This document shows positions 42,135 to 58,011 of a stretch of DNA of 64,000 nucleotides, one piece after another. The first letter of the stretch is position 1. Each line of letters starts with the position of its first letter. The position numbers and the translations under genes are program-made. This DNA is from an uncultured Bacilli bacterium (GTDB lineage Bacteria > Bacillota_I > Bacilli_A > RF39 > UBA660). The stretch spans positions 38,991-102,990 of the forward strand of contig CAKOQV010000001.1 of assembly GCA_934101345.1 (NCBI GenBank). Direction: 5' to 3'. The notes under the pieces were generated by a model that was given only the letters and a program-made list of their open reading frames with translations, was not told the DNA's origin and did no database searches.

Positions 42135-43247
42135 ATGAAAAAGAAAATTTTGTTTATACTACTAGTGGGAGTGTTTCTATTATCAGGATGTGGTAAGACT
42201 AGTGAAAGTAGTATTATAAAAGATTTAGAAAAGAAGATTAATAATTCTAAATCTTACTATATTGAAGGTACTTTAGAGATAGTTAATAATGAAGATTTAT
42301 ATACTTATGATGTTAAAGTATCTTATGCTAAGGGAGATAATTATAAGGTTAATTTAACTAATAAGGTTAATAATCATGAACAAATAATTCTTCGTAACTC
42401 TGATGGAGTATATGTTGTTACTCCGAGAATTAATAAGAGTTTTAAATTTCAAAGTGATTGGCCTTATAATAATTCACAAGTTTATTTACTTAAACCATTA
42501 CTTGATGATATTTTAAGTGATGAAAATAGAACATTTACTAAAGATGGTAATAATTATAAGATAGTAGTGGCTGCTAATTATCCAAATAATGAGAAATTAG
42601 TTAAACAAGAAATATTACTGGATAAAGAAGCTAATATAAAGAAAGTTACTGTTATGGATACTAATGGAACTGCTCAAATTACTATGAATTTTGATAAGAT
42701 AGATTTAAATAGTAAATTTAATGATAATTATTTTGATTTAAAAGAAATCATAGATGTTAAAGAAGAAACTCCTAATGATAATAAGACTACTGAAAATAAT
42801 ACTAATACAAATACTAACACAAATACAAATACTAACACAAATACAAATACTAACACTAACACAAATACTGATAAAGATAAGACTACTGAAACTAAACAAA
42901 CTAGTACAATAGAGGATGTTATTTATCCAATGTATTTACCTGTTAATACTTATCTTTCTAATAAGGAGAAGGTAAGTAAAGATAATGGAGAAAGATTAAT
43001 TCTTACATTTGATGGTGATAATCCATTTATGTTAATTGAAGAGACAGTTACTTATGAAAAAGAACATTTAATAGTTCCTACATATGGTGAACTTGAATTA
43101 ATGGCTTCAACTGTGGCTATAGTTAATGATAATTCAGTAAATTGGATTGATAATAATATAGAATATTATGTAGTTAGCGATAAACTATCTAAAAGTGAAT
43201 TACTTGATATAGCTAGAAGTATATCAGTATTACCAGTAAGCAAGTAA
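42135..43247 (+). CDS. Lipoprotein, LolA-like fold likely (DUF4367-type), with an internal (NT)12 low-complexity tract
   Basis: Lipobox LLSGC after signal MKKKILFILLVGVF. N-terminal domain pattern resembles LolA-like lipoproteins. RBS AAGGAGG upstream. Confidence 0.5.
   Translation: MKKKILFILLVGVFLLSGCGKTSESSIIKDLEKKINNSKSYYIEGTLEIVNNEDLYTYDVKVSYAKGDNYKVNLTNKVNNHEQIILRNSDGVYVVTPRINKSFKFQSDWPYNNSQVYLLKPLLDDILSDENRTFTKDGNNYKIVVAANYPNNEKLVKQEILLDKEANIKKVTVMDTNGTAQITMNFDKIDLNSKFNDNYFDLKEIIDVKEETPNDNKTTENNTNTNTNTNTNTNTNTNTNTNTNTDKDKTTETKQTSTIEDVIYPMYLPVNTYLSNKEKVSKDNGERLILTFDGDNPFMLIEETVTYEKEHLIVPTYGELELMASTVAIVNDNSVNWIDNNIEYYVVSDKLSKSELLDIARSISVLPVSK
42798..42869 (+). repeat. Tandem hexanucleotide repeat (AAYAYN)x12 encoding (Asn-Thr)12 inside the lipoprotein gene
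   Basis: aatactaatacaaatactaacacaaatacaaatactaacacaaatacaaatactaacactaacacaaatact. Confidence 0.8.
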
Positions 43248-43301: not shown

Positions 43302-44027
43302 ATGGAAAAGAAAAATAAGGGATTGATTGTTTTGGTTATTATTTTAACTGTTTTGGTGTTATGTTTAGGTGGTTATATTGTTTACGATAAACTATTAGGT
43401 ACAGACAATAATGATAATGCAAATGATGTAACTGATAGTTCTGATGTAATTAATGAAACAGTAGTATTTAATGCTGGTGAGAATAAAAAATATAATAAAA
43501 ATGTTGGTAATCATATTGTTAATGCTGATGATAGAACATTAATAGTAGATAATAATATTTTATTTAAGTTAGAAGATATAAATTTTCTACATCAAGTTAC
43601 ATTTTATAAGGATATCATTATTACATTTCAAAGTGTTGGTACTAGTGGGATGATACTTATTTATGATTATGATGGTAATATTATAAAAAGTATTGATAAA
43701 TTTAAAGATAATTATGAAAGATTATTTTATACTTCATCAAGATATTCTAATACTGAATATTTTAATGTTTCTTCTGATGGTAAAATATTGTTTGTCGGTT
43801 CTAAACATTTACAATTGGCTGCTGGCACTTATTTAACAGATAATGATACTGAAATAAATTTATTAGGTGGAGATGAAGATATTAATTCTTTGTATAAAGA
43901 AAATAATATTGATGATAATAGCATTGTAAGTGGTATTTTTGAATTTTCTTATTTAGGAAATTATAGTTTTGGTGATATTAAATATGTTAGCACAAATAGT
44001 ACAATAAAAGATTTAATAAATTCTTAA
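43302..44027 (+). CDS. Membrane-anchored hypothetical protein
   Basis: N-terminal TM helix (LIVLVIILTVLVLCLGGYIVY). No motif recognised. Confidence 0.45.
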   Translation: MEKKNKGLIVLVIILTVLVLCLGGYIVYDKLLGTDNNDNANDVTDSSDVINETVVFNAGENKKYNKNVGNHIVNADDRTLIVDNNILFKLEDINFLHQVTFYKDIIITFQSVGTSGMILIYDYDGNIIKSIDKFKDNYERLFYTSSRYSNTEYFNVSSDGKILFVGSKHLQLAAGTYLTDNDTEINLLGGDEDINSLYKENNIDDNSIVSGIFEFSYLGNYSFGDIKYVSTNSTIKDLINS

Positions 44028-44230: not shown

Positions 44231-45745
44231 ATGAAGAAAATATTACTTTGTATTATGGATGGAGTAGGTCTTACTAAAGAAAAAAAATATAATGCTTTAT
44301 ATAATGCTAAAACTCCTAATCTAGATAAATTATGGAAGATATATCCACATAGTGAACTTGAAGCTTCAGGAACATATGTAGGACTTCCTAGAGGGCAAAT
44401 GGGTAATAGTGAAGTAGGCCATACTAATATTGGCGCAGGAAGAGTAGTATATCAGTCTTTAGAACTTATAAATAGTAAGATTAAAGACAAGAGTTTTTAT
44501 AATAATAATGAAATATTAAAAGTAATTAATCATGTTAAAGATAATAATTCTAATATTCATTTAATAGGACTTCTTTCTGATGGAGGAGTTCATTCACATA
44601 TTAATCATTTATTTGCTTTACTTGATATGATTAAAAATAATGGTGTTAAGAATGTTTATATTCATATATTTACTGATGGTAGAGATGTTAGTCCTACTAG
44701 TGGAATTAAATATATTGAGGCTTTGGAAAAGAAACTTAAAACTATTGGTATAGGTAGTATTGCCTCAATTGGTGGTAGATATTATGGTATGGATAGAGAT
44801 AATAGATTTGATAGATTAGAAAAGGCATATAATGCAATGGTTATTGGTACTGAAGTAAGAGAAGTTAAAAAGGTTTGGTATGATAGTCAAAAGAATGATG
44901 TTACTGATGAATTTATAGTACCTACGACTACTGATAGAAATGGTTTAATAAGAGATAATGATGGTATTATATTCTTTAACTTTAGGCCTGATAGATTAAG
45001 AGAACTTGGTAGTATATTTACTAATGATGATTATGAATGCTTTAAGAGAGATAAAATTAATAATTTAAAAGTTGTTACAATGATGAAGGTTACTGATACA
45101 GTACTTTGTCCTATGGCTTTTGAACATCCTGTACTTAATAATACTATTGGCGAATATATATCTAATAAAGGTCTTACACAACTTAGAATAGCAGAAACTG
45201 AGAAGTATGCGCATGTTACTTACTTTATAAATGGTGGTAGTGATGTGATATTTGAAGGTGAAAAAAGAATATTAGTACCTAGTCCTAAAGTGGCTACTTA
45301 TGATTTAGAACCTGAAATGTCTGCGAATATGATTACAGCTTCTTTAGTAAAAGAAATTACGGAAAATAAAGAAGATTTAATAATACTTAATTTTGCTAAT
45401 GGTGATATGGTAGGCCATACTGGTGATTATAATGCTGCAGTAAAAGCAGTGGAAACAGTGGATTCTTGTATTGGTAAGATACTTGATAATATATTATTAG
45501 ATGAATATACGATGATTATTACAGCAGATCATGGTAACTGTGAAGTTATGAGAAATAAAGATGGTAGTGTTAATACTAGTCATACCACTAATAAAGTACC
45601 ATTTATTATTACAGATAAGAGATTAAAATTATTAGATGGTAGTTTATGTGATATTGCTCCTAGTGTATTATTTTTAATGGGACTTGATATACCTAAGGAG
45701 ATGACTGGTAATATACTTATTAAAAATAGAAAGAAGGTTAAATAA
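44231..45745 (+). CDS. gpmI: 2,3-bisphosphoglycerate-independent phosphoglycerate mutase
   Basis: MKKILLCIMDGVGL…GQMGNSEVGHTNIGAGRVVYQSLE… and C-terminal …ITADHGN… are conserved iPGM blocks. About 504 aa. Confidence 0.9.
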   Translation: MKKILLCIMDGVGLTKEKKYNALYNAKTPNLDKLWKIYPHSELEASGTYVGLPRGQMGNSEVGHTNIGAGRVVYQSLELINSKIKDKSFYNNNEILKVINHVKDNNSNIHLIGLLSDGGVHSHINHLFALLDMIKNNGVKNVYIHIFTDGRDVSPTSGIKYIEALEKKLKTIGIGSIASIGGRYYGMDRDNRFDRLEKAYNAMVIGTEVREVKKVWYDSQKNDVTDEFIVPTTTDRNGLIRDNDGIIFFNFRPDRLRELGSIFTNDDYECFKRDKINNLKVVTMMKVTDTVLCPMAFEHPVLNNTIGEYISNKGLTQLRIAETEKYAHVTYFINGGSDVIFEGEKRILVPSPKVATYDLEPEMSANMITASLVKEITENKEDLIILNFANGDMVGHTGDYNAAVKAVETVDSCIGKILDNILLDEYTMIITADHGNCEVMRNKDGSVNTSHTTNKVPFIITDKRLKLLDGSLCDIAPSVLFLMGLDIPKEMTGNILIKNRKKVK

Positions 45746-46761
45746 TGTTAAAGTTACTTAATAATCCTAAGTCAGATAATACTAGAAATATATTAAATGC
45801 TGATTTATTTGTTAGTAATTTACATAATACTTTGAAGGCTTTTGGTTTTAATCCAAAAGTTACTTATGAAGTTTATAGGAGTATTACTGTTTATCATGTT
45901 ACTTGGAATGATGATAAGACTTATGATGATATTTTAGAATTAAAGAAAGAAATTGCTTTATCTTTAGGAATAAATGCATCTGAATTAGTTATGAATAAAG
46001 TAAAAGATAATGAGATATTTATTAAAGTTGATAATATGAAGAAAGATATTTTATGTCTAAAAGAAGTATTAGAGGATTATAAAGTAGATAATGATTTTAA
46101 AGTAGTATTAGGTCTTGATGAATATGATAAATTGGTTACTTTTGATTTTGATAAGGAAAAGAGTCTTTTGGTTACTGGTGTTAGTGGTACTGGTAAAACT
46201 AATTTATTTAATGATATTATTATGAATATTTTAATTAATTATAGTAATGTTAAAGTAGTTATACTTGATTCACAAGGTATTAATTATAATTTATATAGTG
46301 ATGTGTGTGAAGTTGTTAATAAAGAAGAAGATATTATTGTAAAGATTAATTTACTTAGAAGAGAATTTGAAGATAGAGTAAAGAATAACACTAGAGATAA
46401 GATGGTAGTATTTATTGATGAGATATATGAAATATTAAAACTTGATAATAGTGTTAAAGATGATATTAATTATTTATTAGAAGTAGGTAGTACTATGGGA
46501 ATATATTTAGTAGTATCTACGGATAGTGTACTTGAAGATGATACTTATGATTTATTTAATAAAGATAATGTATCAAAGATTAGTTTTTATCTTACTTCAA
46601 GAGGAGAATATAATATGTTTTTAGGTAAGGCTATCAGAGATAACTTGGGTAAAGATGGAATGTATTTGGATAATGATAAGAATTTAATTAGAATGAGCAC
46701 TCCTATGATAGAAGATGATGAAATAGAAAGAGTTTGCAGGTATATTAAAGATAATAAATAG
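45745..46761 (+). CDS. FtsK/SpoIIIE-family mini-ATPase (alpha/beta motor-like; no TM region, no gamma domain)
   Basis: Walker A LLVTGVSGTGKTN and Walker B VVFIDEI, with FtsK-like context (…KSLLVTG…; …LGKD…). 338 aa. Overlaps the gpmI stop (TAATG). Confidence 0.5.
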   Translation: MLKLLNNPKSDNTRNILNADLFVSNLHNTLKAFGFNPKVTYEVYRSITVYHVTWNDDKTYDDILELKKEIALSLGINASELVMNKVKDNEIFIKVDNMKKDILCLKEVLEDYKVDNDFKVVLGLDEYDKLVTFDFDKEKSLLVTGVSGTGKTNLFNDIIMNILINYSNVKVVILDSQGINYNLYSDVCEVVNKEEDIIVKINLLRREFEDRVKNNTRDKMVVFIDEIYEILKLDNSVKDDINYLLEVGSTMGIYLVVSTDSVLEDDTYDLFNKDNVSKISFYLTSRGEYNMFLGKAIRDNLGKDGMYLDNDKNLIRMSTPMIEDDEIERVCRYIKDNK

Positions 46762-46789: not shown

Positions 46790-47830
46790 ATGAAAAATAA
46801 GGATAAGAAGGAAAAGAATACTAACAAGAGAGATAATATATTTATGATTATTTTATCTATTGGTGATGTTATAGCGGTTACTGTTTTATTTCTTTTATAT
46901 GGACCTTATAATGGCTTTAGAGACTGGTTAGTTACTACAGCGATGGGTACAATGAATCATCAGTATTTGGCTACTACCTTTTATAATATGGATAGAATAG
47001 AAGAAATATTATCACATCATAGTACGGTGGAACCTGACTTTGATACTGATACTAGTTTAATTACTGCTGATGAGAATGAATATATTGATGATTATGATAG
47101 GGAGATACTGGATAGAAATAAGAATGATGTGTATAAGATTATTGAAATAGATGAAGATGGTTATTCGGGATATTTGGCTGCAGTGTATGATCCATCAAAA
47201 ATAAAGGTTACTTATAGTAAGAATCTTGGTGTTACTGGAGAGTATCTAGTTGATATGGCTAAGAGAGAAGGGGCAGTTCTCGCTATTAATGGTGGTGGTT
47301 TTGCTGATATTGGTGGACAAGGAAATGGTGGTGCTCCAGTTGGAGCTATTATATCTGGAGGTAAAGTACTTAACTCTTCTAATGGTACAGGAGGTGCTTA
47401 TGGCGGTGGTATTATAGGTTTTACTAATGATAATAAATTGTATCTTGGTAAAATTAGTACTAGTAGGGCAATAGAAATAGGCATTAGAGATGCAGTAGAA
47501 TTTGGACCATTTTTAATAGTAAATGGTAAGAGTTCCTTTATAAATGGTAATGGAGGTTATGGTGTTCATCCGAGAACCGCTATTGCACAGAGAAAAGATG
47601 GTATAGTATTATTTCTAGTTATAGATGGTAGGAGTCTTAAAAGTAAAGGAGCTGATATGAATGATTTAGTAAAAATATTACTTAGATATCATGCATATAA
47701 TGCTGCTAATCTAGATGGTGGTAATTCTAGTGTTATGGTAGTAAATAATAAGATTATTAATCATCCATTTAATTGGGATAATAGAGAAGAAACTAGACCT
47801 ATAGCAAGTGGATTTGTGGTTACTGAATAA
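46790..47830 (+). CDS. Phosphodiester glycosidase (NAGPA/DUF2233-like) with an N-terminal TM anchor
   Basis: TM helix IFMIILSIGDVIAVTVLFLLYG. The motif LAINGGGFADIGGQGNGGAP (vNGGFF-type) is typical of the bacterial NAGPA/DUF2233 family. Confidence 0.5.
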   Translation: MKNKDKKEKNTNKRDNIFMIILSIGDVIAVTVLFLLYGPYNGFRDWLVTTAMGTMNHQYLATTFYNMDRIEEILSHHSTVEPDFDTDTSLITADENEYIDDYDREILDRNKNDVYKIIEIDEDGYSGYLAAVYDPSKIKVTYSKNLGVTGEYLVDMAKREGAVLAINGGGFADIGGQGNGGAPVGAIISGGKVLNSSNGTGGAYGGGIIGFTNDNKLYLGKISTSRAIEIGIRDAVEFGPFLIVNGKSSFINGNGGYGVHPRTAIAQRKDGIVLFLVIDGRSLKSKGADMNDLVKILLRYHAYNAANLDGGNSSVMVVNNKIINHPFNWDNREETRPIASGFVVTE

Positions 47831-47850
47831 GAAATTTATAAGGAGTGTTT

Positions 47851-49110
47851 ATGAGAAAAAATAAGAATAGTAAGAAGATAGTTTTGTTAATTGTTATAAT
47901 TTTTCTTTTATTGTTAATAGGTGGTACTGGAATATACTTTATGTTAAATAATAAAGATAAGGAATCAACAAAAATTAATTATAATGATTATTATAGTAAG
48001 TATGTTACTACTGTTGGAGAAGTTAAATTATATACTAAAGAAAATGATGAATATAAAGAAGGTGGATTTGTAGGTAGTAATGTAGATCTTACTCTTAATA
48101 ATGATAATAGTAATGATGGATATTTTAACGTAAGTGACTTTGATGATAAATATTATGTATATTATAAAGATATAAAGAAAATAAATGAATTATCTAGTAT
48201 AGATAATAGGTATAAAGAATATATAGTATTTAATAATAATGTTCTTACTAAAGATAAAACAGAATTTTATGATGAAAATGGTAATTTAGTTTATTCTTTT
48301 AATGAAGGATATTCTTTACCTATAATAATTAAAGATACTGATAGGTATGGTGTAGAATTTAATAATAGACTTCTATATATAAAGAGTGATGAAGGAGAGG
48401 TAATTAATAATACTAATACAAATAAGCATAATGCAAGTGGAGTAGGAGTATTTAATTATCATGCCTTTTATGATGAGAATGATCCTAATGATTCGTGTCC
48501 TACTGTTATATGTCACTCTAAAAAACAATTTAAAGAACAACTTGATTATTTGAAAGAAAATGATATTCTTACTTTGAAAATGAAAGAATTAGAGATGTAT
48601 ATTGATGGTAAATTACAGTTACCTAAGAGTGTTCTTTTGACAATAGATGATGGCGGTAGAGATAAAATAGCAGTAGATATGCTTACAGAATATAAGATGT
48701 ATGCTACTATATTTTTGGTTACTGCTTGGTATGATCCTAGTACTTATTATACAACTGATTATATTGAACTTCATTCACATACTAATAATATGCATAATAC
48801 TGGTGTTTGTCCTGGTGGACAGGGTGGAGGAATAAAATGTCTTAGAGTGGAAGAAATACAAACAGATTTAAAAACAAGTAGAGAAAAATTAGGAGGATCA
48901 ACATATATAGCTTATCCATTCTATGAATATAATGAATATTCTATAAAGATGCTAAAAGAAGCTGGATTTACAATGGCGTTTATTGGTGAATCTAATAATA
49001 GTGATAATTTGGTTCATGTTGGTAGTGATAAATTTAGATTAAGAAGATTTGTTATTGTTACTTATACGACAATAAAAGGTATTGATGAATATTTAGGACA
49101 AATAAAGTAG
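47851..49110 (+). CDS. Polysaccharide deacetylase (NodB/CE4 domain) with an N-terminal TM anchor
   Basis: NodB motif 1 LTIDDGGRD and motif 2 HSHTNNMH. TM helix near the N-terminus. ATG at 47851 after AAGGAG. Confidence 0.7.
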   Translation: MRKNKNSKKIVLLIVIIFLLLLIGGTGIYFMLNNKDKESTKINYNDYYSKYVTTVGEVKLYTKENDEYKEGGFVGSNVDLTLNNDNSNDGYFNVSDFDDKYYVYYKDIKKINELSSIDNRYKEYIVFNNNVLTKDKTEFYDENGNLVYSFNEGYSLPIIIKDTDRYGVEFNNRLLYIKSDEGEVINNTNTNKHNASGVGVFNYHAFYDENDPNDSCPTVICHSKKQFKEQLDYLKENDILTLKMKELEMYIDGKLQLPKSVLLTIDDGGRDKIAVDMLTEYKMYATIFLVTAWYDPSTYYTTDYIELHSHTNNMHNTGVCPGGQGGGIKCLRVEEIQTDLKTSREKLGGSTYIAYPFYEYNEYSIKMLKEAGFTMAFIGESNNSDNLVHVGSDKFRLRRFVIVTYTTIKGIDEYLGQIK

Positions 49111-49138
49111 ACATTAGATTGACATTTAATGTCTTTTT
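49109..49138 (+). terminator. Rho-independent terminator overlapping the next promoter
   Basis: AGACATTA / loop / TAATGTCT, then TTTT. Confidence 0.55.
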
Positions 49139-49147
49139 ATATATAAT
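49119..49147 (+). promoter_or_regulatory. Consensus sigma-A promoter for the 1256-aa protein gene
   Basis: TTGACA, exactly 17 nt, TATAAT, embedded in the preceding terminator hairpin and about 23 nt before RBS GAGGGAA. Confidence 0.6.
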
Positions 49148-49170
49148 AATGGCGATTTTGAGGGAATTAT

Positions 49171-52100
49171 ATGGATAAAAAAGATATTAAAAATAAAAGT
49201 ATTAATGAACTGATGGCATTACTACTTGATAAAGATATTTTAAAAAAGGATAAGTTAAGAATAAATCGTATAGTTTATAGAAAATTAAATAACGATAGTG
49301 ATCGCGCAAATAATTGGAATTTGTTAAGAAAATATTTTAAAGGTTTAAAAGAAAATGTTAATATTGAGAATTGTTTGTCTGATAAAGATATGCCTAAATA
49401 TGTAAAGAAATATATTTTGGAATATGGTTTTAATGGTGAAGAGTTACGAATACTATTAAAGAAGAGTTTAGATTATGATTTAAAAGAATATATTGTAAAA
49501 GACTTACTTAATGTAAGTTATGAGGTTGTAAGAATACTTAAAGATGATATGATTGTTGATAAATTAAAGAAGCTTTGTGTAAAAAAAAATATAAATAATT
49601 ATAATATTATTAGTGTATTGTTAGAAAATACAATCGATGATGAATGTAGAGAATACATTTTATCTACTGAAAAAAGAAGATTTGTTAGAGTACTTTATTC
49701 TACTTCAAATAGAGAACTAATATATAGGCTTACTTTTGATTTTTCTAAAAATGGAGATTGTCTTAATAATGTTGATTTTATTCAAAAATATAAACCAAGT
49801 TTATTAAAAAATTTATCTAGGGCTATTAATTGTAGATATATTAGAGATCTTTATGATAAAACATTTAAAAATGAAACACTTATTGGTATTGTACTAGATA
49901 GAAATGAACAAAAGATTAATAAAGTTATTAATAATGTAAGAAAAGAAGAATGTATCAGATTTCTTGAAGTAAAAAAATTACCTAAAGAATATGTTCAAGT
50001 TATAATAAATAATAATATTAATTATTTAAATGATTATATCGATAAGCTTAGTGTTAGTGAAGTAATAAGAAAATTATATAATTATAAAAATATAAACTTG
50101 GAATTTAAAAAAATGATTGTTAATCGTAGGTGTGATGATCTAATTAATGAGTTAAATAGATATGATCTTAAGAAATATTTGGATTATGTTAATTATCACT
50201 ATTATAATGATAAATTGATTGTTAATACTATTAATAATAAAATTATTGATGAAGAAATATTCAGTGTTTTAAATACTCATACTTATGATAATAATATTAT
50301 TGATTTTATAGTAAAATATAAAGATGACTATATAAAAGAATTTTTATCTAATATTGATTGGGATAATCTTATTTATAATAAAAAAAATAATGATAGATAT
50401 ATTGATATAATTACTTCTTTAACTAATAATGTTCAAGATAAAATATATAAAAAAAATAATAAATATATAAAAAACATTTTAAGTAAATATGATAGCGATA
50501 CTTTAAATAAATTTTTAAGTAATAGCAATATTACCTCCAGTAAATTTATTCGTACTGTGCAAAATGTTATATTTAAAATATTTGATGTTAGTGATGAGAA
50601 GATAAATTATTGTAGTATTATTATAAAATATAGTAATGGAAGAAATATTTTTGAGTTGTTAAGAAATATAGAAGAATTTTTCAATAAAATTGAAATGGAT
50701 ATTAGTTTATTCTTTCAATATGGTAGTTATGAATTTGGTAACAAGTTAATTGATAATATAATTGAAATTAATAATAATAATGAAATAAATGATTTTATTA
50801 ATGTTAAAAAATATTTATTTGATAATTATTTTGATAATACTTTGAATAATGCTACGATGATTATTAATTTGAATTTAGTAATTAAAAATTATAATTTATA
50901 TAAAAATTTATTATTAGATATAAGTAATAAAAAATGTATACTTAATGATAATGATAAAAGTAATTTGTATTTACTTTTTAGTGGAAAATTTGCTGGTACT
51001 CCTTTAACTTTATATGAATTAGATGAAATTAAAAAGAAAGAATTTAGTAAATATAAAGAAGAAATACTTGATAAGAATACTTATATTAATAGAATTAAAG
51101 ATATATTTTTTAATAATATTATTGCTTATAATAGTAATTATTTTGATAGTATTGGTAATATTTCATTACTGAAGATACTACAAAAAGATAATATTGATAA
51201 TAAGGAAATTTTCTATTTAACTGAAGAAATTATTACTAGTATGGATATTATTAATAAACTGGCTACTACTAATGACAGAGATGAACTAGTTAAAATTGTT
51301 ATTTCTTATATAGATGGGGAAGATACTCCTGTTAATAGAATGATTAATGATATTATAGATATTAAGAGTAAAATTAGAAGATTGTATGAACTTGATAGTA
51401 TGTATAATTTAACTACTTTAGAATATGCGAGAAAGGTACCTGGTATATACAATAGGGAATATATGGAACTTTATGGTGGAGAGGTATTTGATTTTAGTGA
51501 TAAAAATTATGTATTATATGCACATGTGGTAAGTAGTAGAGAGAATATTGAAGATTTGGTTAATGGTTATAGTAGCGGTAATAGTAATTTTATTTCTTTT
51601 AGTCCAATTAGTTATAGAGGGCAGAAATATTATTATGATTACTGTGATTGTATATTGGCATATGATACTATATATGATAATAGCTTTATATGTAGTTCTT
51701 TATCTAATATGGGAAGTAATCATTGCATGGTAGAAAGGAATAGTGCAGTTGTGGCCGACAAATATAGAAATCAGAGAGGAATATTAGAAACTAGTTCTGT
51801 GAAGAAACAAAATGCCGAAACATTATTATATAGGGAAGGATTAAAACCATGTGGTATTATACTTGTTAATGGTAAAAAACCTAATAGTGATGAAATTATG
51901 TATCATAAAAGATATAATTTACCTTTTATTATTACACAAAAGAAAGGGACTGTGATTGATAATCCAAAGAGAGTGTTTACTTCTGGAAATGGCAAATATG
52001 TCAGTGACAGTAGGGTAAAAGAGCTTGATAGTATAAAGAAATATATTGATAGCAAACTAACAATTAAAAAAGAAAATGATATATATACAGGAAGAGAGAT

Positions 52101-52941
52101 AGCTATATTTACTGATACACATGCTATGTATGAACCTACTATTGCAATACTTGAGGATATTAGATATAGGGGTATAAGTGAGATTTATTCACTTGGTGAT
52201 AATACTTCACTTGGACCTAGTCCTAGAGAAGTACTTGATTTGATGGATAAATATAATGTAAAACAAATTATGGGTAATAGTGAGTATTATTTAACACTAG
52301 GAGGTAGTCCTTTTAATTACTGGAATGAAGAAAGAGAAAGAAGCTTAGATTGGACTAATGATAGAGTACAGGGATATATTAATGATTTAAAATTATATAA
52401 GCCTTCTTTAGACTTATTACTTGGTGATAAAAAGATAGCACTATGTCATTTTGGTAATGATATTAGATGGGATTTTATTAAACATAATACTTGGATATAT
52501 CAAGATAATATTGGTAATGGAAAGTCTTCTGAACAATTTATGTTTACTAATAGTGACGAATATAATAAAGAAGTAGAATATATGATAAATAAATATGGTA
52601 TTGATAATCCTAAAGTACAAGGATATTTATCTAGCAAGAATACTCCTATGTTTGAAGGCAAACTTATTACTTCGTATGATGATGTTTTTCAAGGTCATGT
52701 TCATTTTGAATTAGAAGATAGACTTAATAATACTAATATTCATACTTTAAGAGGAGCTGGTATGGGAGAACTTGATGAAAGTAAGAAGAGTATGGCATAT
52801 TATATAATTTTAAAAGAAAAGAAAATAGGTGGATATGATATAGAAAAGGTATACATACCATTTAATAAAAATAGTTTATTATCTAGTATATACTCTTCTG
52901 ATATGCCTACGAAAACAAAGATACTTAGTTACTTGAAATAA
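49171..52941 (+). CDS. Large multidomain protein: about 900-aa N/I/K-rich helical N-terminal region plus C-terminal calcineurin-like metallophosphoesterase domain
   Basis: C-terminal MPP motifs in order: IAIFTDTHA (D-x-H), LGDNTSLG (GD), GNSEYY (GNH[DE]-like), CHFGN, GHVHF (GHxH). No signal peptide or TM helix seen. The middle region (…YRGQKYYYDYCDCILAYDT…GSNHCMVERN…) is unassigned. Confidence 0.55.
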   Translation: MDKKDIKNKSINELMALLLDKDILKKDKLRINRIVYRKLNNDSDRANNWNLLRKYFKGLKENVNIENCLSDKDMPKYVKKYILEYGFNGEELRILLKKSLDYDLKEYIVKDLLNVSYEVVRILKDDMIVDKLKKLCVKKNINNYNIISVLLENTIDDECREYILSTEKRRFVRVLYSTSNRELIYRLTFDFSKNGDCLNNVDFIQKYKPSLLKNLSRAINCRYIRDLYDKTFKNETLIGIVLDRNEQKINKVINNVRKEECIRFLEVKKLPKEYVQVIINNNINYLNDYIDKLSVSEVIRKLYNYKNINLEFKKMIVNRRCDDLINELNRYDLKKYLDYVNYHYYNDKLIVNTINNKIIDEEIFSVLNTHTYDNNIIDFIVKYKDDYIKEFLSNIDWDNLIYNKKNNDRYIDIITSLTNNVQDKIYKKNNKYIKNILSKYDSDTLNKFLSNSNITSSKFIRTVQNVIFKIFDVSDEKINYCSIIIKYSNGRNIFELLRNIEEFFNKIEMDISLFFQYGSYEFGNKLIDNIIEINNNNEINDFINVKKYLFDNYFDNTLNNATMIINLNLVIKNYNLYKNLLLDISNKKCILNDNDKSNLYLLFSGKFAGTPLTLYELDEIKKKEFSKYKEEILDKNTYINRIKDIFFNNIIAYNSNYFDSIGNISLLKILQKDNIDNKEIFYLTEEIITSMDIINKLATTNDRDELVKIVISYIDGEDTPVNRMINDIIDIKSKIRRLYELDSMYNLTTLEYARKVPGIYNREYMELYGGEVFDFSDKNYVLYAHVVSSRENIEDLVNGYSSGNSNFISFSPISYRGQKYYYDYCDCILAYDTIYDNSFICSSLSNMGSNHCMVERNSAVVADKYRNQRGILETSSVKKQNAETLLYREGLKPCGIILVNGKKPNSDEIMYHKRYNLPFIITQKKGTVIDNPKRVFTSGNGKYVSDSRVKELDSIKKYIDSKLTIKKENDIYTGREIAIFTDTHAMYEPTIAILEDIRYRGISEIYSLGDNTSLGPSPREVLDLMDKYNVKQIMGNSEYYLTLGGSPFNYWNEERERSLDWTNDRVQGYINDLKLYKPSLDLLLGDKKIALCHFGNDIRWDFIKHNTWIYQDNIGNGKSSEQFMFTNSDEYNKEVEYMINKYGIDNPKVQGYLSSKNTPMFEGKLITSYDDVFQGHVHFELEDRLNNTNIHTLRGAGMGELDESKKSMAYYIILKEKKIGGYDIEKVYIPFNKNSLLSSIYSSDMPTKTKILSYLK

Positions 52942-52945
52942 TAAG

Positions 52946-52971
52946 AAAAGAACATGAAAATGTTCTTTTTA
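52946..52971 (+). terminator. Rho-independent terminator
   Basis: AAAAGAACAT / gaaa / ATGTTCTTTT, then T. Confidence 0.7.
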
Positions 52972-53004
52972 TGTAGATATTTGTCTAAAAAAGTCTTTTT
53001 AACC

Positions 53005-53033
53005 TAGACTAAGGTAGTTAAATATGTTATACT
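53005..53033 (+). promoter_or_regulatory. Extended -10 promoter candidate for the LCP gene and downstream glycan genes
   Basis: TAGACT, 17-nt spacer, TGtTATACT. Confidence 0.4.
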
Positions 53034-53057
53034 TTTTATTGGTAGGACAGTGATATT

Positions 53058-54506
53058 GTGAAGAAAAACAGAAGAAAAAGAAGTAAGAATAAGGGTATTT
53101 GGTTTTTTAGAGCAATTGCTATAATATCAATAATTATATTTATAGTATTTGGGATTATGTTATATGTACTTGATATGATACCATTTAAGTATTTAATTAT
53201 CTTTTATATAGTATTTGGACTATTATATTTATATTTATTTATTACATCTTTTCCTAAGAAAATAAAGAATAAATTTAAGATTAGTTCATGTGTATTTTTA
53301 ATACTTTTTGCTACCATATTTGGCGTTGGTATTAAATATTTAAATGATACTATGGATTTTGTTGGGGTTATAAGTAAAGATTTATTTCAAAAAGAGGTAT
53401 ATTATGTTATGACTTTAGGGGATTCTAAATATAAAGATATTAAATATTTAGATGGTAAGTCTATAGGCATATATAGTTCTAAGAATAGTACTAAAGCTAG
53501 TAATGAATTAAATAAAAAGATAAAGAATATTTCTAAAGAGTATAAGAATGTTGTGGAATTATTTGAAGATTTACAAGATAATAAGATAGATGCTGTATTA
53601 ATTAATGAATCTACGAAGAATTTACTTGATACTGATTTAGCTGATATGAAACTTAAATTAAAGGAAATATATAAGGTATATGTTTCGATAGAAAAAACTG
53701 ATATAGTAAAAGTAGTTGATATTACTAAGAAGCCATTTAATATATATGTAGCAGGTGGAGATGCTTATGGTAGTATTGATAATGTTACTAATACTGATGT
53801 TAATATGATTATTACAGTAGATCCTGTTAATAAAAAAGTATTACTTACTTCAATACCAAGAGATTATTATGTTAATTTACCTTCGTTTGGTGATGATGCT
53901 TATGATAAACTTACTCATGCTGGATATTATGGTATAGAAGAGTCTGTTAAAGCTATAGAGAATTTACTTGATATTGATATTAATTATTATGTTAAGGTTA
54001 ATTTCTCTACTATTGAAGGTGTTATTGATGCAATTAAAGGTGTTGATGTTTATTCTGATTATAGTTTTAATGAATGTGCTTATGGTATATATCATTTTAA
54101 TAAGGGAATGAACCATTTAAATGGAAAACAAGCTCTTGCTTTTGCTAGAGAAAGGAAATCCTTTTCAGATGGTGATATACAAAGAGTTAAGAATCAGCAG
54201 AAAGTTCTTACAGCAATTATAGATAAAGTAACATCATCAACAACATTAGTGACTAATTTTTCACAAATATTAGATAGTGTTGGTAATAGTTTTTCAACGA
54301 ATATGGAAAGTAAAAATATTAATAGATTTATAAAGATGCAACTTAATGATATGCGAAGTTGGAGTATAGAAAGTCAAAATCTAGTTGGTACGGATTTTTA
54401 TACTTATACTTATACATATCCAAATTTACAATTATATGTAATGAAACAAGATGAAAATTCTATTGATGTGTCAAAAAATAAAATAAATAAGTATTTAAAA
54501 TGGTAA
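53058..54506 (+). CDS. LytR-CpsA-Psr (LCP) family cell-wall glycopolymer phosphotransferase
   Basis: N-terminal TM helices, then LCP-domain hallmarks NMIITVDPVNKKVLLTSIPRDYYV and …YVKVNFSTIEGVIDAIKGVDV…ALAFARER…. Confidence 0.8.
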   Translation: MKKNRRKRSKNKGIWFFRAIAIISIIIFIVFGIMLYVLDMIPFKYLIIFYIVFGLLYLYLFITSFPKKIKNKFKISSCVFLILFATIFGVGIKYLNDTMDFVGVISKDLFQKEVYYVMTLGDSKYKDIKYLDGKSIGIYSSKNSTKASNELNKKIKNISKEYKNVVELFEDLQDNKIDAVLINESTKNLLDTDLADMKLKLKEIYKVYVSIEKTDIVKVVDITKKPFNIYVAGGDAYGSIDNVTNTDVNMIITVDPVNKKVLLTSIPRDYYVNLPSFGDDAYDKLTHAGYYGIEESVKAIENLLDIDINYYVKVNFSTIEGVIDAIKGVDVYSDYSFNECAYGIYHFNKGMNHLNGKQALAFARERKSFSDGDIQRVKNQQKVLTAIIDKVTSSTTLVTNFSQILDSVGNSFSTNMESKNINRFIKMQLNDMRSWSIESQNLVGTDFYTYTYTYPNLQLYVMKQDENSIDVSKNKINKYLKW

Positions 54507-54559
54507 TTGATATTGTATTTGAATAAATATGATATTAATTTAGAAGGAGATAATAGAAG

Positions 54560-55651
54560 ATGAAAAAAAAATATACAAAAAAAAGAATTGCAATTTTTAC
54601 TGATAATTTTAATGTTGGAGGAATTCAAAAGTCTTTAGTAAATTTATTAAATAATAATGATTATGAAAAATATGATATTGATGTTTATGTTGCTAATTAT
54701 GAAAACAATTTTTTTGATGTTAATCCTAATGCTAATATAATTAGATTTAATAAGACTTCATCAATCTTAAAATTTATTCCTTTTAATGTTGTGTATAAGG
54801 TATATAATCCGATTGTATTGAATAAAGAATACGATTTAGCTATTGATTTTGATAGTTATCAAATGCATACTGCTATTGGTGCACTTAAATGTAAAAGTAA
54901 AAAGAAAGCAATTTGGATTCATAATGATATACAAATAAAAATAAAGGAAGAATTTAAATATAGGATTTTACATTTCTTTTTTAAGGACAAATATGATTAT
55001 TTTGATACTTATTGTGCAGTTTCACAGGGGGCTTTAGATTCTTTTAAAGAGATTAATAAAAATAAAAACAAGGATAAATGTTATCTAGTTATACCAAATT
55101 ATATTGACACAAAAGAAATAGCTGATAAGCTTAAAGAAAAAAGTGATATAAAAGTTGATAAAGAAAAAGTTAATATTGTTACAGTAGGAAGATTGTGTCA
55201 TCAAAAAGGAATTGATATTATGCTTGATAATATTAAACAGCTTAGTAATGTTAGAAAAGATTTTCATTTGTATATTATTGGTGATGGTGATGAAAAGGAA
55301 AAACTTATTGAGCAAATGAAAAGACTTGATTTAGAACAATATGTTACTTTTTTAGGCAATCAAAAGAATCCTTTTAAGTATTTGAAAGAAATGGATTTAT
55401 TTTATCTTTCTAGTAGATATGAAGGGCAAGGAATGGTTATATTAGAAGCAAAGAGTGTTGGACTTGATGTATTAATACCTAAACATTTAGAAAAGTATTG
55501 TCCGCCAATTAAAGGTGTAGACGATGTTTTATTGTATTTAAAGAAGTATAAGAAAAGTAATAAGACTAAAAAATTTGATGACTTAAACGATTACAATAAT
55601 AATATTAGAAAAGAATTAAATAATTTGTTTGATGCTTCAAATGATAAATAA
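54560..55651 (+). CDS. GT4-family glycosyltransferase
   Basis: GT-B/GT4 E-x7-E region EGQGMVILEAKSVGLDVL. About 360 aa. RBS AAGGAG upstream. Confidence 0.7.
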   Translation: MKKKYTKKRIAIFTDNFNVGGIQKSLVNLLNNNDYEKYDIDVYVANYENNFFDVNPNANIIRFNKTSSILKFIPFNVVYKVYNPIVLNKEYDLAIDFDSYQMHTAIGALKCKSKKKAIWIHNDIQIKIKEEFKYRILHFFFKDKYDYFDTYCAVSQGALDSFKEINKNKNKDKCYLVIPNYIDTKEIADKLKEKSDIKVDKEKVNIVTVGRLCHQKGIDIMLDNIKQLSNVRKDFHLYIIGDGDEKEKLIEQMKRLDLEQYVTFLGNQKNPFKYLKEMDLFYLSSRYEGQGMVILEAKSVGLDVLIPKHLEKYCPPIKGVDDVLLYLKKYKKSNKTKKFDDLNDYNNNIRKELNNLFDASNDK

Positions 55652-55663
55652 TTTATAGAGGAA

Positions 55664-56683
55664 GTGATTTTGGTGAAAGATAAAATAGATATTGTAATTC
55701 CTTGGGTAGATGGAAACGATATAGAATGGCAAAATGAAAAAAATAAATATAAGCAAAAAAAAGATGAAAAATTAAATAATAGTTCTCGTTTTCGTGATTG
55801 GGATAATTTGCAATATATATTCCGTGGAATTGAAAAATTTATGCCTTGGGTTAATAATATTTTCTTTATAACTTGGGGACATTTACCTAAATGGTTAAAT
55901 GTTGATAATCCTAAACTTAAGATAATAAATCACAAGGATTATATTCCTAGTAAATATTTACCAACGTTTAATTCTCATACTATTGAGTTAAATCTTTATA
56001 GAATAAAAGATTTAAGTGAAAAGTTTATTTATTTTAATGATGATACATTTGTTATTGATTATATGAGTGAAAGTATGTTCTTTAAAAATGGTCTTCCTTG
56101 TGATTGCGGGATTTTAAATCCAATTATACCGGTTGGATATGATAACTTTAGCAATGTTTCAGTAAATAATCTTACAATAATTAATGAAGAATTTAATAAA
56201 AGAACTTCTATAAAAAAGTCGATATTTAATTGGTATAATATAAAATATGGTTCTAATTTAATACGAAATTTTTCATTGATACCTTGGGGAAAGTTTCCTG
56301 GATTTTATAATGGACATTTGCCTAATTCATTTCTTAAGTCAACATTTTGTGAAGTATGGCAGAAATATGAAGAAACTTTAGATAATACTTGTTCGTGTCA
56401 TTTAAGAGATAATTTTACTAATGTTAATCAGTGGTTAATGAGATATTGGCAACTTGGAAAAAATCAATTTTATCCTAGGAATCCAAATTTTGGAAAATTT
56501 TATGAAATTACTGACAATAATGATAATATTATTAATGATATAAAAAGCCAAAAATTTAAAATGGTGTGCTTGAATGACGGAATAAATATTAATAATTTTG
56601 AGAAAACTAAGTATGAAATAAATGAAGCTTTGTCTTTTGTTTTACCGAATAAGTGTTCATTTGAAAAGAGTGATACTATATGA
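55664..56683 (+). CDS. Stealth-family hexose-1-phosphoryltransferase (capsule/wall-polymer phosphoglycosyl transferase); start likely the GTG at 55673
   Basis: Stealth CR1 IDIVIPWVDGND; CR2 PWVNNIFFITWGHLPKWLNVDNPKLKIINHKDYI; CR3 YFNDDTFVIDYM. The stop overlaps the next ATG (ATGA). Confidence 0.8.
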   Translation: MILVKDKIDIVIPWVDGNDIEWQNEKNKYKQKKDEKLNNSSRFRDWDNLQYIFRGIEKFMPWVNNIFFITWGHLPKWLNVDNPKLKIINHKDYIPSKYLPTFNSHTIELNLYRIKDLSEKFIYFNDDTFVIDYMSESMFFKNGLPCDCGILNPIIPVGYDNFSNVSVNNLTIINEEFNKRTSIKKSIFNWYNIKYGSNLIRNFSLIPWGKFPGFYNGHLPNSFLKSTFCEVWQKYEETLDNTCSCHLRDNFTNVNQWLMRYWQLGKNQFYPRNPNFGKFYEITDNNDNIINDIKSQKFKMVCLNDGININNFEKTKYEINEALSFVLPNKCSFEKSDTI

Positions 56684-58011
56684 AAAGAAAATTAAAAGAA
56701 GCATTTATAAAAATAAAAAGTAATGACTTTTGGAGAAAATTATTTAAGAATTCTTTCTATGCAATAATGGGTGAAGGTGGTTCTTCGGTTATTAACTTAT
56801 TTGTAGTTTTCTTGTTAATAAAGCTGTTAGGAAATGATAAATATGCAATTTTAGTATTGGCTCAATCTTATATGTCAATTTTAGATTTGATAATTAACTT
56901 GCAAAGTTGGCAAAGTGTTATAAAGTTTGGCGAAGAAATGAGAGTTAAAAATAAGATTGATAGATATTTGGAGTATATTAAATTAGGGACAATTTTAGAT
57001 GTTTCTACAGCACTTTTATGTGGAATAATTGGCTTTTTTATTGCACCTCTTGTTGGAAGCATATTTAATTGGAGTAGAGAATTAATAGTTTGCTGCCAAA
57101 TATTTACGGCGGAAATATATTTTCATTTTTCTGGTACTCCAATAGCTGTATTAAGACTAGAAAATAAGTTTAATTTAGTAGCATTACAAAAAATAATTTC
57201 TGCTGCTATAAAGTTGATAACATTGTTAGTAATTGTATTTATGACTCCCAAAATGTCATTAATAGCGGCTGTTATAATTTATGTTGCTACAGACATAATT
57301 TCACATTTAATCTTAGTAGCAATGTTTTTCTCTGTTGTACATAAGAAGTGGGGAATAAAAAAATTATTTAAATCTAAAATACCACAAAATAAAGGCGAAT
57401 TTATTAAGTATACAATATGGTGTACTTTAGGAGATGCTGTTGATATTCCTGTTTTATATTTAGATGTATTTGTTGTATCAGCATTAAAATTAGAGTTGGT
57501 AACTGTTTTTAAGGTGTTCAAACAAATAATGTCTATTTTATCAAAATTAGCATCACCAATTTATCAAGCAATCTTTCCACAATTTTCAACTTTGGTTGCT
57601 AAAGGTGAGTTTAAAAGGGGATATGATGCAGTTATTAGAATAAGAAATGCAGTATATAAGTATTTTATACCATTAATTATGTTAGTTGGACTTAGTTCAC
57701 CAATTTGGTTAAAGGTTATTTTTGGCGAATTATTTTCACAATACTGGTATGTGTTATTTATTTATCTGATAGTACATACATATGCATTATCGTACACTAC
57801 TATCCATCCATACTTTACTGCGTTAGGAAAAGTAAAAGAAGGATTTATAATTTGCTTGATAGCAAATATTGTATATTTAGGACTAGCACTATTATTAACT
57901 AAACATATCGGTATGATTGCTATTGTTATTAGTTATACTATTCAGATTTTAATTGTTATTCTTACAAAAAAGAAAATTATTAAAAAGGAAATTGATAGTA
58001 ATGATGTTTAA
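56680..58011 (+). CDS. wzx: Wzx-type polysaccharide flippase (MOP superfamily)
   Basis: About 12 predicted TM helices and the polysaccharide-biosynthesis-protein pattern. 443 aa. Translationally coupled to the Stealth gene. Confidence 0.7.
   Translation: MKRKLKEAFIKIKSNDFWRKLFKNSFYAIMGEGGSSVINLFVVFLLIKLLGNDKYAILVLAQSYMSILDLIINLQSWQSVIKFGEEMRVKNKIDRYLEYIKLGTILDVSTALLCGIIGFFIAPLVGSIFNWSRELIVCCQIFTAEIYFHFSGTPIAVLRLENKFNLVALQKIISAAIKLITLLVIVFMTPKMSLIAAVIIYVATDIISHLILVAMFFSVVHKKWGIKKLFKSKIPQNKGEFIKYTIWCTLGDAVDIPVLYLDVFVVSALKLELVTVFKVFKQIMSILSKLASPIYQAIFPQFSTLVAKGEFKRGYDAVIRIRNAVYKYFIPLIMLVGLSSPIWLKVIFGELFSQYWYVLFIYLIVHTYALSYTTIHPYFTALGKVKEGFIICLIANIVYLGLALLLTKHIGMIAIVISYTIQILIVILTKKKIIKKEIDSNDV

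Follow-up and report, generated by a model that had tools for sequence, protein, structure and literature searches.

Enzymes of ADP-ribosylation play a central part in the action of toxins, in defence against phages, in the repair of DNA and RNA, and in signalling, and new ADP-ribosyltransferase (ART) families such as DarT, CmdT, SidE, and CteC have repeatedly opened new biology. In the SidE effectors of Legionella, a mono-ADP-ribosyltransferase (mART) is paired with a phosphodiesterase (PDE) on one polypeptide for phosphoribosyl-linked modification, and the PDE can cut the pyrophosphate of ADP-ribose (PMC11668277). CteC of Chromobacterium violaceum, a mono-ADP-ribosyltransferase acting on Thr66 of host ubiquitin, is an R-S-E enzyme with the residues R65, S97, D134, and E220 (PMC10810742). 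Calcineurin-like phosphoesterases recur in NAD+/ADP-ribose systems (PMC9503650), and ADPRibase-Mn, an enzyme of the metallophosphoesterase (MPP) superfamily, hydrolyzes ADP-ribose and cyclic ADP-ribose at the phosphoanhydride bond (PMC3407115). We analyzed a gene (positions 49171–52941) in a 64,000-nucleotide stretch of a contig from an uncultured Bacilli bacterium (CAKOQV010000001.1, positions 38,991–102,990; below, the window), the product of which appears to join an ART-like domain to an MPP.

The results showed that the protein consists of a variable N-terminal region, a pre-ART segment, a domain modelled with the ART fold, and an intact MPP, and that it is the cytoplasmic product of a single, autonomous gene. 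The MPP is binuclear, of the SapH/3rqz type, and lies ~25 residues C-terminal of the ART-like domain. Public records label the protein 'hypothetical protein', and we could not find any description of a family with this fusion in the searchable literature. The initial annotation, which was made from the letters of the window, had described a 1256-aa open reading frame (ORF) with a C-terminal metallophosphoesterase; the ORF, its ATG, the translation, and the five motifs of the enzyme all hold. The remark that the architecture matches no recognised family was likewise borne out, since Pfam, NCBIfam, PADLOC, and PHROGs gave nothing for the window protein beyond the MPP. Although both catalytic domains belong to known superfamilies that have no relation to wall polymers, the family as such is uncharacterised.

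The ART-like middle domain and the metallophosphoesterase

When the window protein was compared with distant members of its family, identity was 7–30% over most of aa 1–700, 40–66% in aa 751–900, and 46–64% in the MPP. The first ~900 aa had originally been taken for a low-complexity region with an unassigned, Cys/His-containing middle segment. The low complexity was found, but it covers ~730 aa, whereas aa 730–945 make up a conserved globular α/β domain, here called MID, which is ART-like by its model and had no Pfam, PHROG, or PDB sequence match.

An AlphaFold2 model of MID built from 78 diverse sequences reached a predicted local distance difference test score (pLDDT) of 93.3 and a predicted TM-score (pTM) of 0.91; an earlier model from 10 sequences (pLDDT 64) was too weak and was set aside. 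Of the N-terminal region that had first been described as helical, this model covers aa 730–770. In a Foldseek search of the PDB with this model, the top seven matches were all CteC (probability 0.69–0.99, six of them ≥0.92), with a best E value of 2e-3, TM-scores of 0.40–0.45, end-to-end alignment, and a sequence identity of 12–15%. DarT, the DNA ADP-ribosyltransferase of DarTG and an ART with a His-type first motif, formed the second group of fold matches (7yk3 and 7omx; probability 0.06), and pierisin and Tpt1 followed lower. Among viral models the best match was a large multidomain phage protein. The modelling thus indicates that MID has the ART fold, with its split β-sheet core, and that it constitutes an ART-like family not previously catalogued. 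A relationship to DRTGG/HprK-N-like domains was rejected, as that similarity was only local, confined to 43–60 residues of the last β-α-β unit (E 0.016, Foldseek probability ≤0.08).

Among the 78 sequences, E883 and R888 were conserved in all, H785 and S843 in 77, N850 and Q923 in 76, and S842 and N846 in 72; the residue at Y821 was aromatic in 76, and S814 and F839 were also conserved. In the model, H785 lies at the end of the first core strand, S842–S843 end a strand, and E883 starts one, so that these residues match the places where ART motifs sit. H785, Y821, and E883 form a putative triad, the order and secondary-structure positions of which are as expected for an ART, and the spacing of 36 residues between H785 and Y821 resembles that of diphtheria toxin and PARP. 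The modelled pattern suggests a triad closer to H-Y-E than to R-S-E. An R-S-E triad formed through R816 is unlikely, since this residue is not conserved (R/K/L/I), and this candidate was ruled out.

CteC (PDB 8HTC-F, 8UX2), the best structural match, was aligned with MID over nearly the whole length of both. In both domains, a core strand opens with a glutamate in the catalytic position, and polar residues lie between this glutamate and the second motif (S842/S843/N846/N850 in MID; D134/N139 in CteC, PMC10810742). Unlike CteC, MID has a near-invariant His in place of the Arg, together with the conserved Tyr, and no profile match links the two. CteC is, furthermore, a type III effector, small and secreted, whereas the window protein is large, cytoplasmic, fused to an MPP, and found in a gut commensal.

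In the C-terminal ~300 aa, the five calcineurin-like motifs noted originally are present in order (D982-x-H984, G1009-D1010, G1035-N1036-S1037-E1038, H1093, and G1175-H1176-x-H1178); they are conserved in the family and not degenerate on alignment. The metal-binding and catalytic motifs I, II, IV, and V are invariant in family alignments down to ~27–34% overall identity. In motif III, G1035, N1036, and E1038 are invariant, and the canonical His is replaced by Ser or Ala in the subfamily of the window protein and present in members with a DUF4116-type N-terminus. A conserved W1061-T1062 pair is located in the cap region. The window protein scored 20.1 bits against Metallophos_2 (PF12850), the gathering score of which is 27, whereas the homologues P0024 (29.8), P0026 (34.8), and P0025 (31.5; PF00149) exceeded the Pfam cut-off, and 29 of 31 subfamily members matched Metallophos_2. 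The family profile matched the solved MPPs 3qfm (E 1.8e-9) and 3rqz (E 7.9e-9), with the helical cap and its W-T pair included. Since the motifs are invariant and are supported by homologue and profile matches, they are real and not chance occurrences, and the sequence comparisons place the C-terminal domain in the calcineurin-like metallophosphoesterase superfamily (PF00149/PF12850), with a predicted activity.

3QFM and 3RQZ resemble the window MPP in motifs I–III and, for 3rqz, in the helical cap with W-T. Non-His forms of motif III are common in the Metallophos_2 clade, and 3QFM (GNWE) and the window MPP (GNSE) both have such a form. The two solved proteins, of which 3RQZ comes from Sphaerobacter, belong to the Metallophos_2/PrpE-like MPPs and are stand-alone enzymes of ~250 aa, whereas the window MPP is fused to the ART-like domain and has an extra insert of ~60 aa (about aa 1097–1165). 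3qfm is SapH/Spr1479, which hydrolyzes ATP, diadenosine polyphosphates, and phosphodiesters and is thus a cleaver of pyrophosphate bonds.

In comparisons with four related genomes, the ratio of nonsynonymous to synonymous substitution rates (dN/dS) was 0.33–0.65 for the N-terminal region, 0.13–0.18 for MID, and 0.08–0.18 for the MPP. These ratios indicate strong purifying selection on MID and the MPP. The ART-MPP fusion is ancient and constrained.

The possibility exists that the protein is a regulated nucleotide phosphodiesterase or phosphatase, in which the MPP is the sole catalyst (with, e.g., Ap4A-type dinucleotides or another nucleotide signal as substrate) and the ART-like domain is a transferase-dead regulator that binds NAD+, ADP-ribose, or a nucleotide. 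This would agree with the lack of an ART signature at the sequence level and with the MPP, which by its conserved motifs is the most securely assigned part of the protein and has small stand-alone hydrolases as its closest solved relatives. However, the invariant Glu and Arg and the near-invariant His, Tyr, Ser-Ser, and Asn of MID, retained at 23–54% identity, form an active-site pattern, and a class of homologues described below carries MID without an MPP, which argues that MID has a function of its own. We therefore consider such a regulated phosphodiesterase decidedly unlikely.

Proposed chemistry

The model of the middle domain points to the chemistry of NAD+ and ADP-ribose and not to that of sugar-phosphate polymers. 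The reading that we favour, with a confidence somewhat short of even, is that of a two-step NAD+-dependent enzyme, which would ADP-ribosylate a target and then cut the pyrophosphate of the ADP-ribose by means of the MPP. The ART-like domain would use NAD+, held by H785 and Y821, with E883 as the catalytic glutamate, and would attach ADP-ribose to a macromolecule, the choice of which would fall to the N-terminal region. The fused MPP would then cleave the pyrophosphate of the attached ADP-ribose, whereby AMP would be released and a phosphoribosyl mark would stay on the target. This proposal is supported by the recurrence of the MID-MPP fusion with a linker of 20–25 aa and by dN/dS values of 0.08–0.18 across the two domains. 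It is further supported by the ART fold of the model with its active-site-like conservation, by the lack of a recurrent partner gene, and by three precedents, namely the pairing of mART and PDE in SidE (PMC11668277), the cleavage of pyrophosphate bonds by SapH, and ADPRibase-Mn, an MPP that hydrolyzes ADP-ribose (PMC3407115). The proposed MPP chemistry is thus feasible, although ADPRibase-Mn is eukaryotic, stands alone, acts on free nucleotides, and displayed no close relationship to the window MPP in the searches run.

Several points speak against the two-step enzyme. The best fold match, CteC, has an R-S-E triad, whereas the first position of MID is occupied by His, and the 'R' that would be aligned by spacing, R816, is unconserved. 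No ART family appeared among the Pfam matches of the 78 MID members, the PHROG matches, or the PDB sequence matches. The Ser that replaces His in motif III may reduce or change the activity of the MPP, and that the ART-like and MPP domains act on one shared substrate is something that we infer. Finally, a constitutively expressed modifying enzyme without an antidote gene must be harmless or autoinhibited.

The likeness of the proposed enzyme to SidE is a functional analogy and not membership. We detected no relation between the two in sequence or fold. The phosphodiesterase of the window protein is a calcineurin-like MPP, a fold to which the PDE of SidE is unrelated, and the order of the domains is reversed, with the PDE preceding the mART in SidE. 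SidE proteins also contain deubiquitinase (DUB) and coiled-coil domains, have an R-S-E mART, and are secreted by Dot/Icm into eukaryotic cells; in the window protein, the first motif has His and no DUB was detected.

A wider proposal, which we think unlikely, is that common gut Firmicutes carry an endogenous enzyme that ADP-ribosylates its targets and then trims the mark to phosphoribose. It would be a convergent counterpart of the SidE mART/PDE, made of a new ART family and an MPP, with its targets set by an exchangeable N-terminal module that evolves rapidly and with sister proteins that add a kinase-like domain. If true, commensals would have a way of modifying macromolecules with NAD+ that belongs to a new class. 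The fusion of an ART-like domain to an MPP predicted to cleave pyrophosphate leads to testable chemistry, namely phosphoribosylation or complete breakdown of NAD+, which has so far been known mainly from one family of pathogen effectors. The family is invisible to the domain, defence, and phage protein databases named above, yet it is present and intact both in a prevalent lineage of uncultured Bacilli, in thousands of human-gut assemblies, and in at least 22 further lineages.

The family and its exchangeable parts

Word-index homology searches yielded few relatives, which were close ones or fragments, and an exhaustive hidden Markov model search was required. With the MID profile, this search covered 1.84 billion representatives and found at least 157 clusters (50% identity), 151 of them at E <1e-10. 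In the first architecture, present in ~100 of the 157 clusters, an N-terminal region is followed by MID, a gap of 20–25 aa, and the MPP. In the second and third, MID is followed by an element of ~300 aa, either with or without a subsequent MPP.

The ~300-aa element of both sister groups proved to be one domain, here called X (MID-X-MPP and MID-X). It displays the invariant pattern K ... D-x-K-x-x-N ... 12 aa ... D and had no Pfam match and no PDB sequence match; from this spacing, which is that of a protein-kinase catalytic core, we infer that it is kinase-like. The idea that the C-terminal domain X of the third class is a degenerate MPP was ruled out by hhalign (probability 0.2%). The aligned carriers of domain X (alignment A7) are P0144, P0146–P0148, P0150, P0152, P0153, P0155, P0158–P0163, P0165, P0167–P0171, P0173–P0175, P0177–P0180, P0182, and P0183, and some proteins with this domain reach 2,300–2,900 aa. 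The window protein has no domain X.

These sister architectures bear on a possible role in the processing or repair of nucleic-acid ends. Here, a Tpt1/KptA- or DarT-like ART would ADP-ribosylate RNA or DNA, either at a terminal phosphate or at a base, the MPP would be a 2',3'-phosphoesterase or a trimmer of ADP-ribose, and domain X would phosphorylate in the sister proteins. Both DarT and Tpt1 are among the fold matches of MID, the kinase-typical D-x-K-x-x-N ... D motifs occur in MID-X and MID-X-MPP, and combinations of ART, phosphoesterase, and kinase have been proposed for RNA-repair systems (PMC9503650). The Tpt1 and DarT matches are, however, weak (probability ≤0.06) in comparison with those to the protein-modifying CteC, and the domain scans detected neither a ligase or nuclease domain nor one that binds nucleic acids. 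Moreover, the window protein lacks domain X, the kinase nature of which is deduced from motifs only. We consider a role of this kind very doubtful.

The conserved core of the family starts at ~aa 495. A profile of the pre-ART segment (aa 495–729) matched 122 proteins of the family, among them those with an N-terminus of the DUF4116 type. Upstream of the core, 59 family proteins have an N-terminus of the window type, and ~41 of 184 have DUF4116-like repeats instead. Neither aa 1–494 nor aa 495–729 of the window protein had a match to Pfam or to solved structures. The N-terminal 730 aa are rich in Asn (14%), Ile (13%), and Lys (12%), and the corresponding codons (49171–51357) have a G+C content of 18.6%, against 27.8% in the catalytic part (51358–52941) and 25.8% in the window. 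From these comparisons, aa 1–494 (dN/dS 0.39–0.65) are an exchangeable, fast-evolving module, which is presumed to be the part that recognises a target or a signal.

The DUF4116-like N-termini (P0026, P0067, P0085, P0108, and ~37 others; loci L008–L010) contain up to 15 tandem repeats of ~50 aa with the signature [KNL]GY.P[ST]..[DE]L..N. We ruled out that the N-terminus of the window protein represents degenerate repeats of this type (P0026, P0085, and P0108) by hmmsearch and hhalign (probability 0.5%). In lineages with DUF4116-type proteins, and without a counterpart in the window, a small ORF of 54–65 aa overlaps the 3' end of the family gene (L008:4451–4627, L009:6031–6195, L010:4823–4987, and possibly L012:12019–12216 and L011:7234–7518). 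The copies in L008 and L009 are clearly related, and the ORF might be a regulator or an antidote.

Genomic context and features of the window

Loci of the family were collected from contig look-ups and a metagenome scan, which gave 93 loci, including the window, in 23 lineages (≥75% identity). In the window, the gene is preceded by genes for a MurC-like ligase, a class A penicillin-binding protein, RecU, iPGM, an FtsK/HerA-like ATPase, NAGPA, and a polysaccharide deacetylase, and it is followed by genes for LCP, GT4, Stealth, PIG-L, Wzy_C + ATP-grasp, TagA, and GT2. The cell-envelope cluster described in the initial annotation is therefore real, as Pfam supports NAGPA, the deacetylase, LCP, GT4, and Stealth, but this context is limited to the window's own genus lineage (1 of 23) and is absent from the 22 others. 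Elsewhere, obg 5' together with yqeG/yqeH 3' was found in four lineages and ABC transporters in five; in others, the gene adjoins uvrD, fmt, dacB/spmAB, or RNase R.

From its position, the gene had been proposed to encode an enzyme of phosphodiester processing or signalling that acts on wall glycopolymers together with its NAGPA-like, LCP, and Stealth neighbours. It does lie between the NAGPA/deacetylase genes and those for LCP/GT4/Stealth/TagA, at the same place in the four related genomes, and it shares the raised divergence of the locus described below. Enzymes of the LCP and NAGPA types work on the outer side of the membrane, whereas the window protein is cytoplasmic, with no membrane anchor; in addition, its own promoter and terminators insulate the gene from the flanking ones, and its second catalytic domain is ART-like. 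Thus, since the protein is cytoplasmic and the envelope context is not conserved, the wall-polymer role is the least supported of the alternatives and extremely improbable, and the location in the cluster is most likely incidental to function. The position of a gene inside a cell-wall cluster can mislead when, as here, the context is limited to one genus.

No recurrent neighbour, partner, or immunity-like gene, and no recurrent macrodomain, ARH, or Nudix gene was found across the 23 lineages, and a recurrent partner, immunity, or eraser gene was accordingly rejected. In this respect the family differs from DarT, which is paired with the macrodomain antitoxin DarG, whereas no macrodomain or other eraser gene goes with the family genes. 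The lack of a recurrent partner, together with a conserved promoter and terminator of its own, means that the gene is autonomous. The protein does not fit the scheme of a polymorphic toxin. Its variability is at the N-terminal end and its conserved enzymes are at the C-terminal end, opposite to the polarity of such toxins; in addition, we detected neither a secretion domain nor a recurrent downstream gene.

Within the genus, the four species genomes (loci L001–L004) and thousands of assemblies all carry the gene intact and in synteny, and its products formed three clusters at 90% identity with 137, 1852, and 80 distinct sequences. The closest genomes were human-gut metagenome-assembled genomes labelled uncultured Bacilli, 'uncultured Tenericutes', or Clostridium sp. 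CAG:302, and a wall-polymer locus of the Clostridioides difficile type was thereby rejected. Frameshifts were seen in some orthologues: at least seven each in L043 (VOFJ01000226.1) and L044 (VOFC01002942.1), two in L005, and one in L019. These orthologues are probably not pseudogenes, as the scattered pattern in A+T-rich sequence suggests assembly errors, which in L043 and L044 look like those of long reads.

The flanking housekeeping genes are 96–99% identical between the related genomes, with synonymous divergence (dS) of 0.05–0.13, whereas dS of the gene is 0.26–0.65; it is also raised in LCP and, in two genomes, in NAGPA. Along window positions 46790–56683, dS against L001–L004 rises from ~0.1 (iPGM, ATPase) to 0.2–0.65 from NAGPA through the gene and LCP. 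L002 and L004 lack the deacetylase gene (47845–49110), and 3' of LCP the glycosyltransferases are not orthologous. This pattern of divergence resembles that of a recombining, variable surface-glycan locus. The gene lies at the edge of a hyper-divergent stretch running into the glycan locus, either because both are under the same diversifying pressure or merely because they are linked.

Many proteins with the ART fold are NADases, and the gene could encode a self-contained sensor for immunity or abortive infection, the effector part of which destroys NAD+. In such a system, the N-terminus would sense an invader, the ART-fold domain would be a glycohydrolase converting NAD+ to ADP-ribose and nicotinamide, and the MPP would convert ADP-ribose to AMP and ribose-5-phosphate, so that NAD+ salvage would be blocked. 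A large, fast-evolving, putatively helical region joined to conserved enzymatic effectors without an antidote gene would fit this idea, as would the swapping of the N-terminal module between subfamilies, the location in a hyper-divergent chromosomal stretch, and the ability of an MPP, ADPRibase-Mn, to hydrolyze ADP-ribose (PMC3407115). A known defence protein was ruled out, however, as PADLOC-DB v2 gave 0 families and the contexts in the 23 lineages are housekeeping genes, with no defence island or mobile element. No relatives were found among phage or plasmid records (tblastn) or viral contigs either, and a phage or plasmid origin was rejected on this basis. The conservation of the gene throughout the genus is also unlike the patchy distribution of defence genes, and dN/dS of the N-terminal region is below 1. 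Destruction of NAD+ in immunity thus seems unlikely to be the function of the gene.

Inspection of the sequence around the gene supported the view that it has transcript signals of its own. A textbook promoter overlapping the terminator of the upstream gene had been noted originally, and we found it to be complete, with its -35 box inside the upstream hairpin; it is the sole perfect match in a 7-kb scan (47–54 kb). This hairpin is kept in L001–L004 and in L040, also where the upstream gene is a different one, and the promoter, hairpin, and ribosome-binding site are nearly invariant 5' of orthologues with a protein identity of only 66–80%. The position of the start codon is common to the orthologues. 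The downstream hairpin has the form AAAAGAACAT-GAAA-ATGTTCTTTT and is followed by T-rich sequence. A terminator scanner called neither hairpin, as both are A+T-rich and the upstream one has <3 G-C pairs. With its own promoter and flanking hairpins, the gene is thus a self-contained transcription unit. In agreement with the initial annotation, the protein has neither a transmembrane helix nor a signal peptide, the highest Kyte-Doolittle mean over 19 residues being 0.82.

Features of the gene and its product, in window coordinates
Feature	Position	Strand	Basis and details
Hairpin and U-run closing the upstream gene	49102..49140	+	RNAfold -12.4 kcal/mol; -35 box in apical part
Sigma-70-type promoter, TTGACA-17-TATAAT	49119..49147	+	-35 = 49119-49124, -10 = 49142-49147; score 12/12
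Ribosome-binding site, GAGGGA	49160..49165	+	5 nt 5' of ATG; read from sequence, kept in orthologues
Coding sequence, 1256 aa, predicted cytoplasmic	49171..52941	+	ATG start, no internal stops on translation
Variable N-terminal module, aa 1-494	49171..50652	+	N/I/K-rich, ~18.6% GC, least conserved part of protein
Conserved pre-ART segment, aa 495-729	50653..51357	+	Motifs such as FxQYG, VKxYLFxNYY, DKxNLxFLFN, IGGxxxLKxL
Predicted ADP-ribosyltransferase-like domain MID, aa 730-945 (~215 aa)	51358..52005	+	AlphaFold2 model, Foldseek, and conservation
Short linker between ART-like domain and MPP, aa 946-974	52006..52092	+	Domains 20-25 aa apart in ~100 representative clusters
Calcineurin-like MPP domain, aa 975-1256	52093..52938	+	Five motifs, family profile matches, dN/dS 0.08-0.18
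Hairpin and U-run, intrinsic-terminator-like	52941..52974	+	Directly 3' of stop codon; RNAfold -11.7 kcal/mol

Some further genes of the window, all on the + strand, were observed in passing. The 443-aa product of 56680–58011 had no Pfam or PADLOC match. The same was true of the 370-aa product of 42135–43247, which is 94–99% identical across the related genomes with a dN/dS of 0.03–0.04 and is thus strongly constrained. Between this gene and iPGM, the window contains a 241-aa ORF (43302–44027) with no Pfam match and no counterpart in the four related genomes, where the two genes are ~200 nt apart; the ORF therefore appears to be an insertion specific to the window. The FtsK/HerA-like P-loop ATPase (338 aa, 45745–46761), the best PADLOC match of which was mad8 (E 1.5e-13), starts in an overlap with the last base of the iPGM gene and is 96–98% conserved in the related genomes, which makes an odd, tight pairing with a glycolytic enzyme. 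In the glycan locus, the 817-aa protein encoded at 59511–61964 displays an unusual combination of a Wzy_C membrane domain (O-antigen ligase/polymerase type) and a C-terminal ATP-grasp domain.

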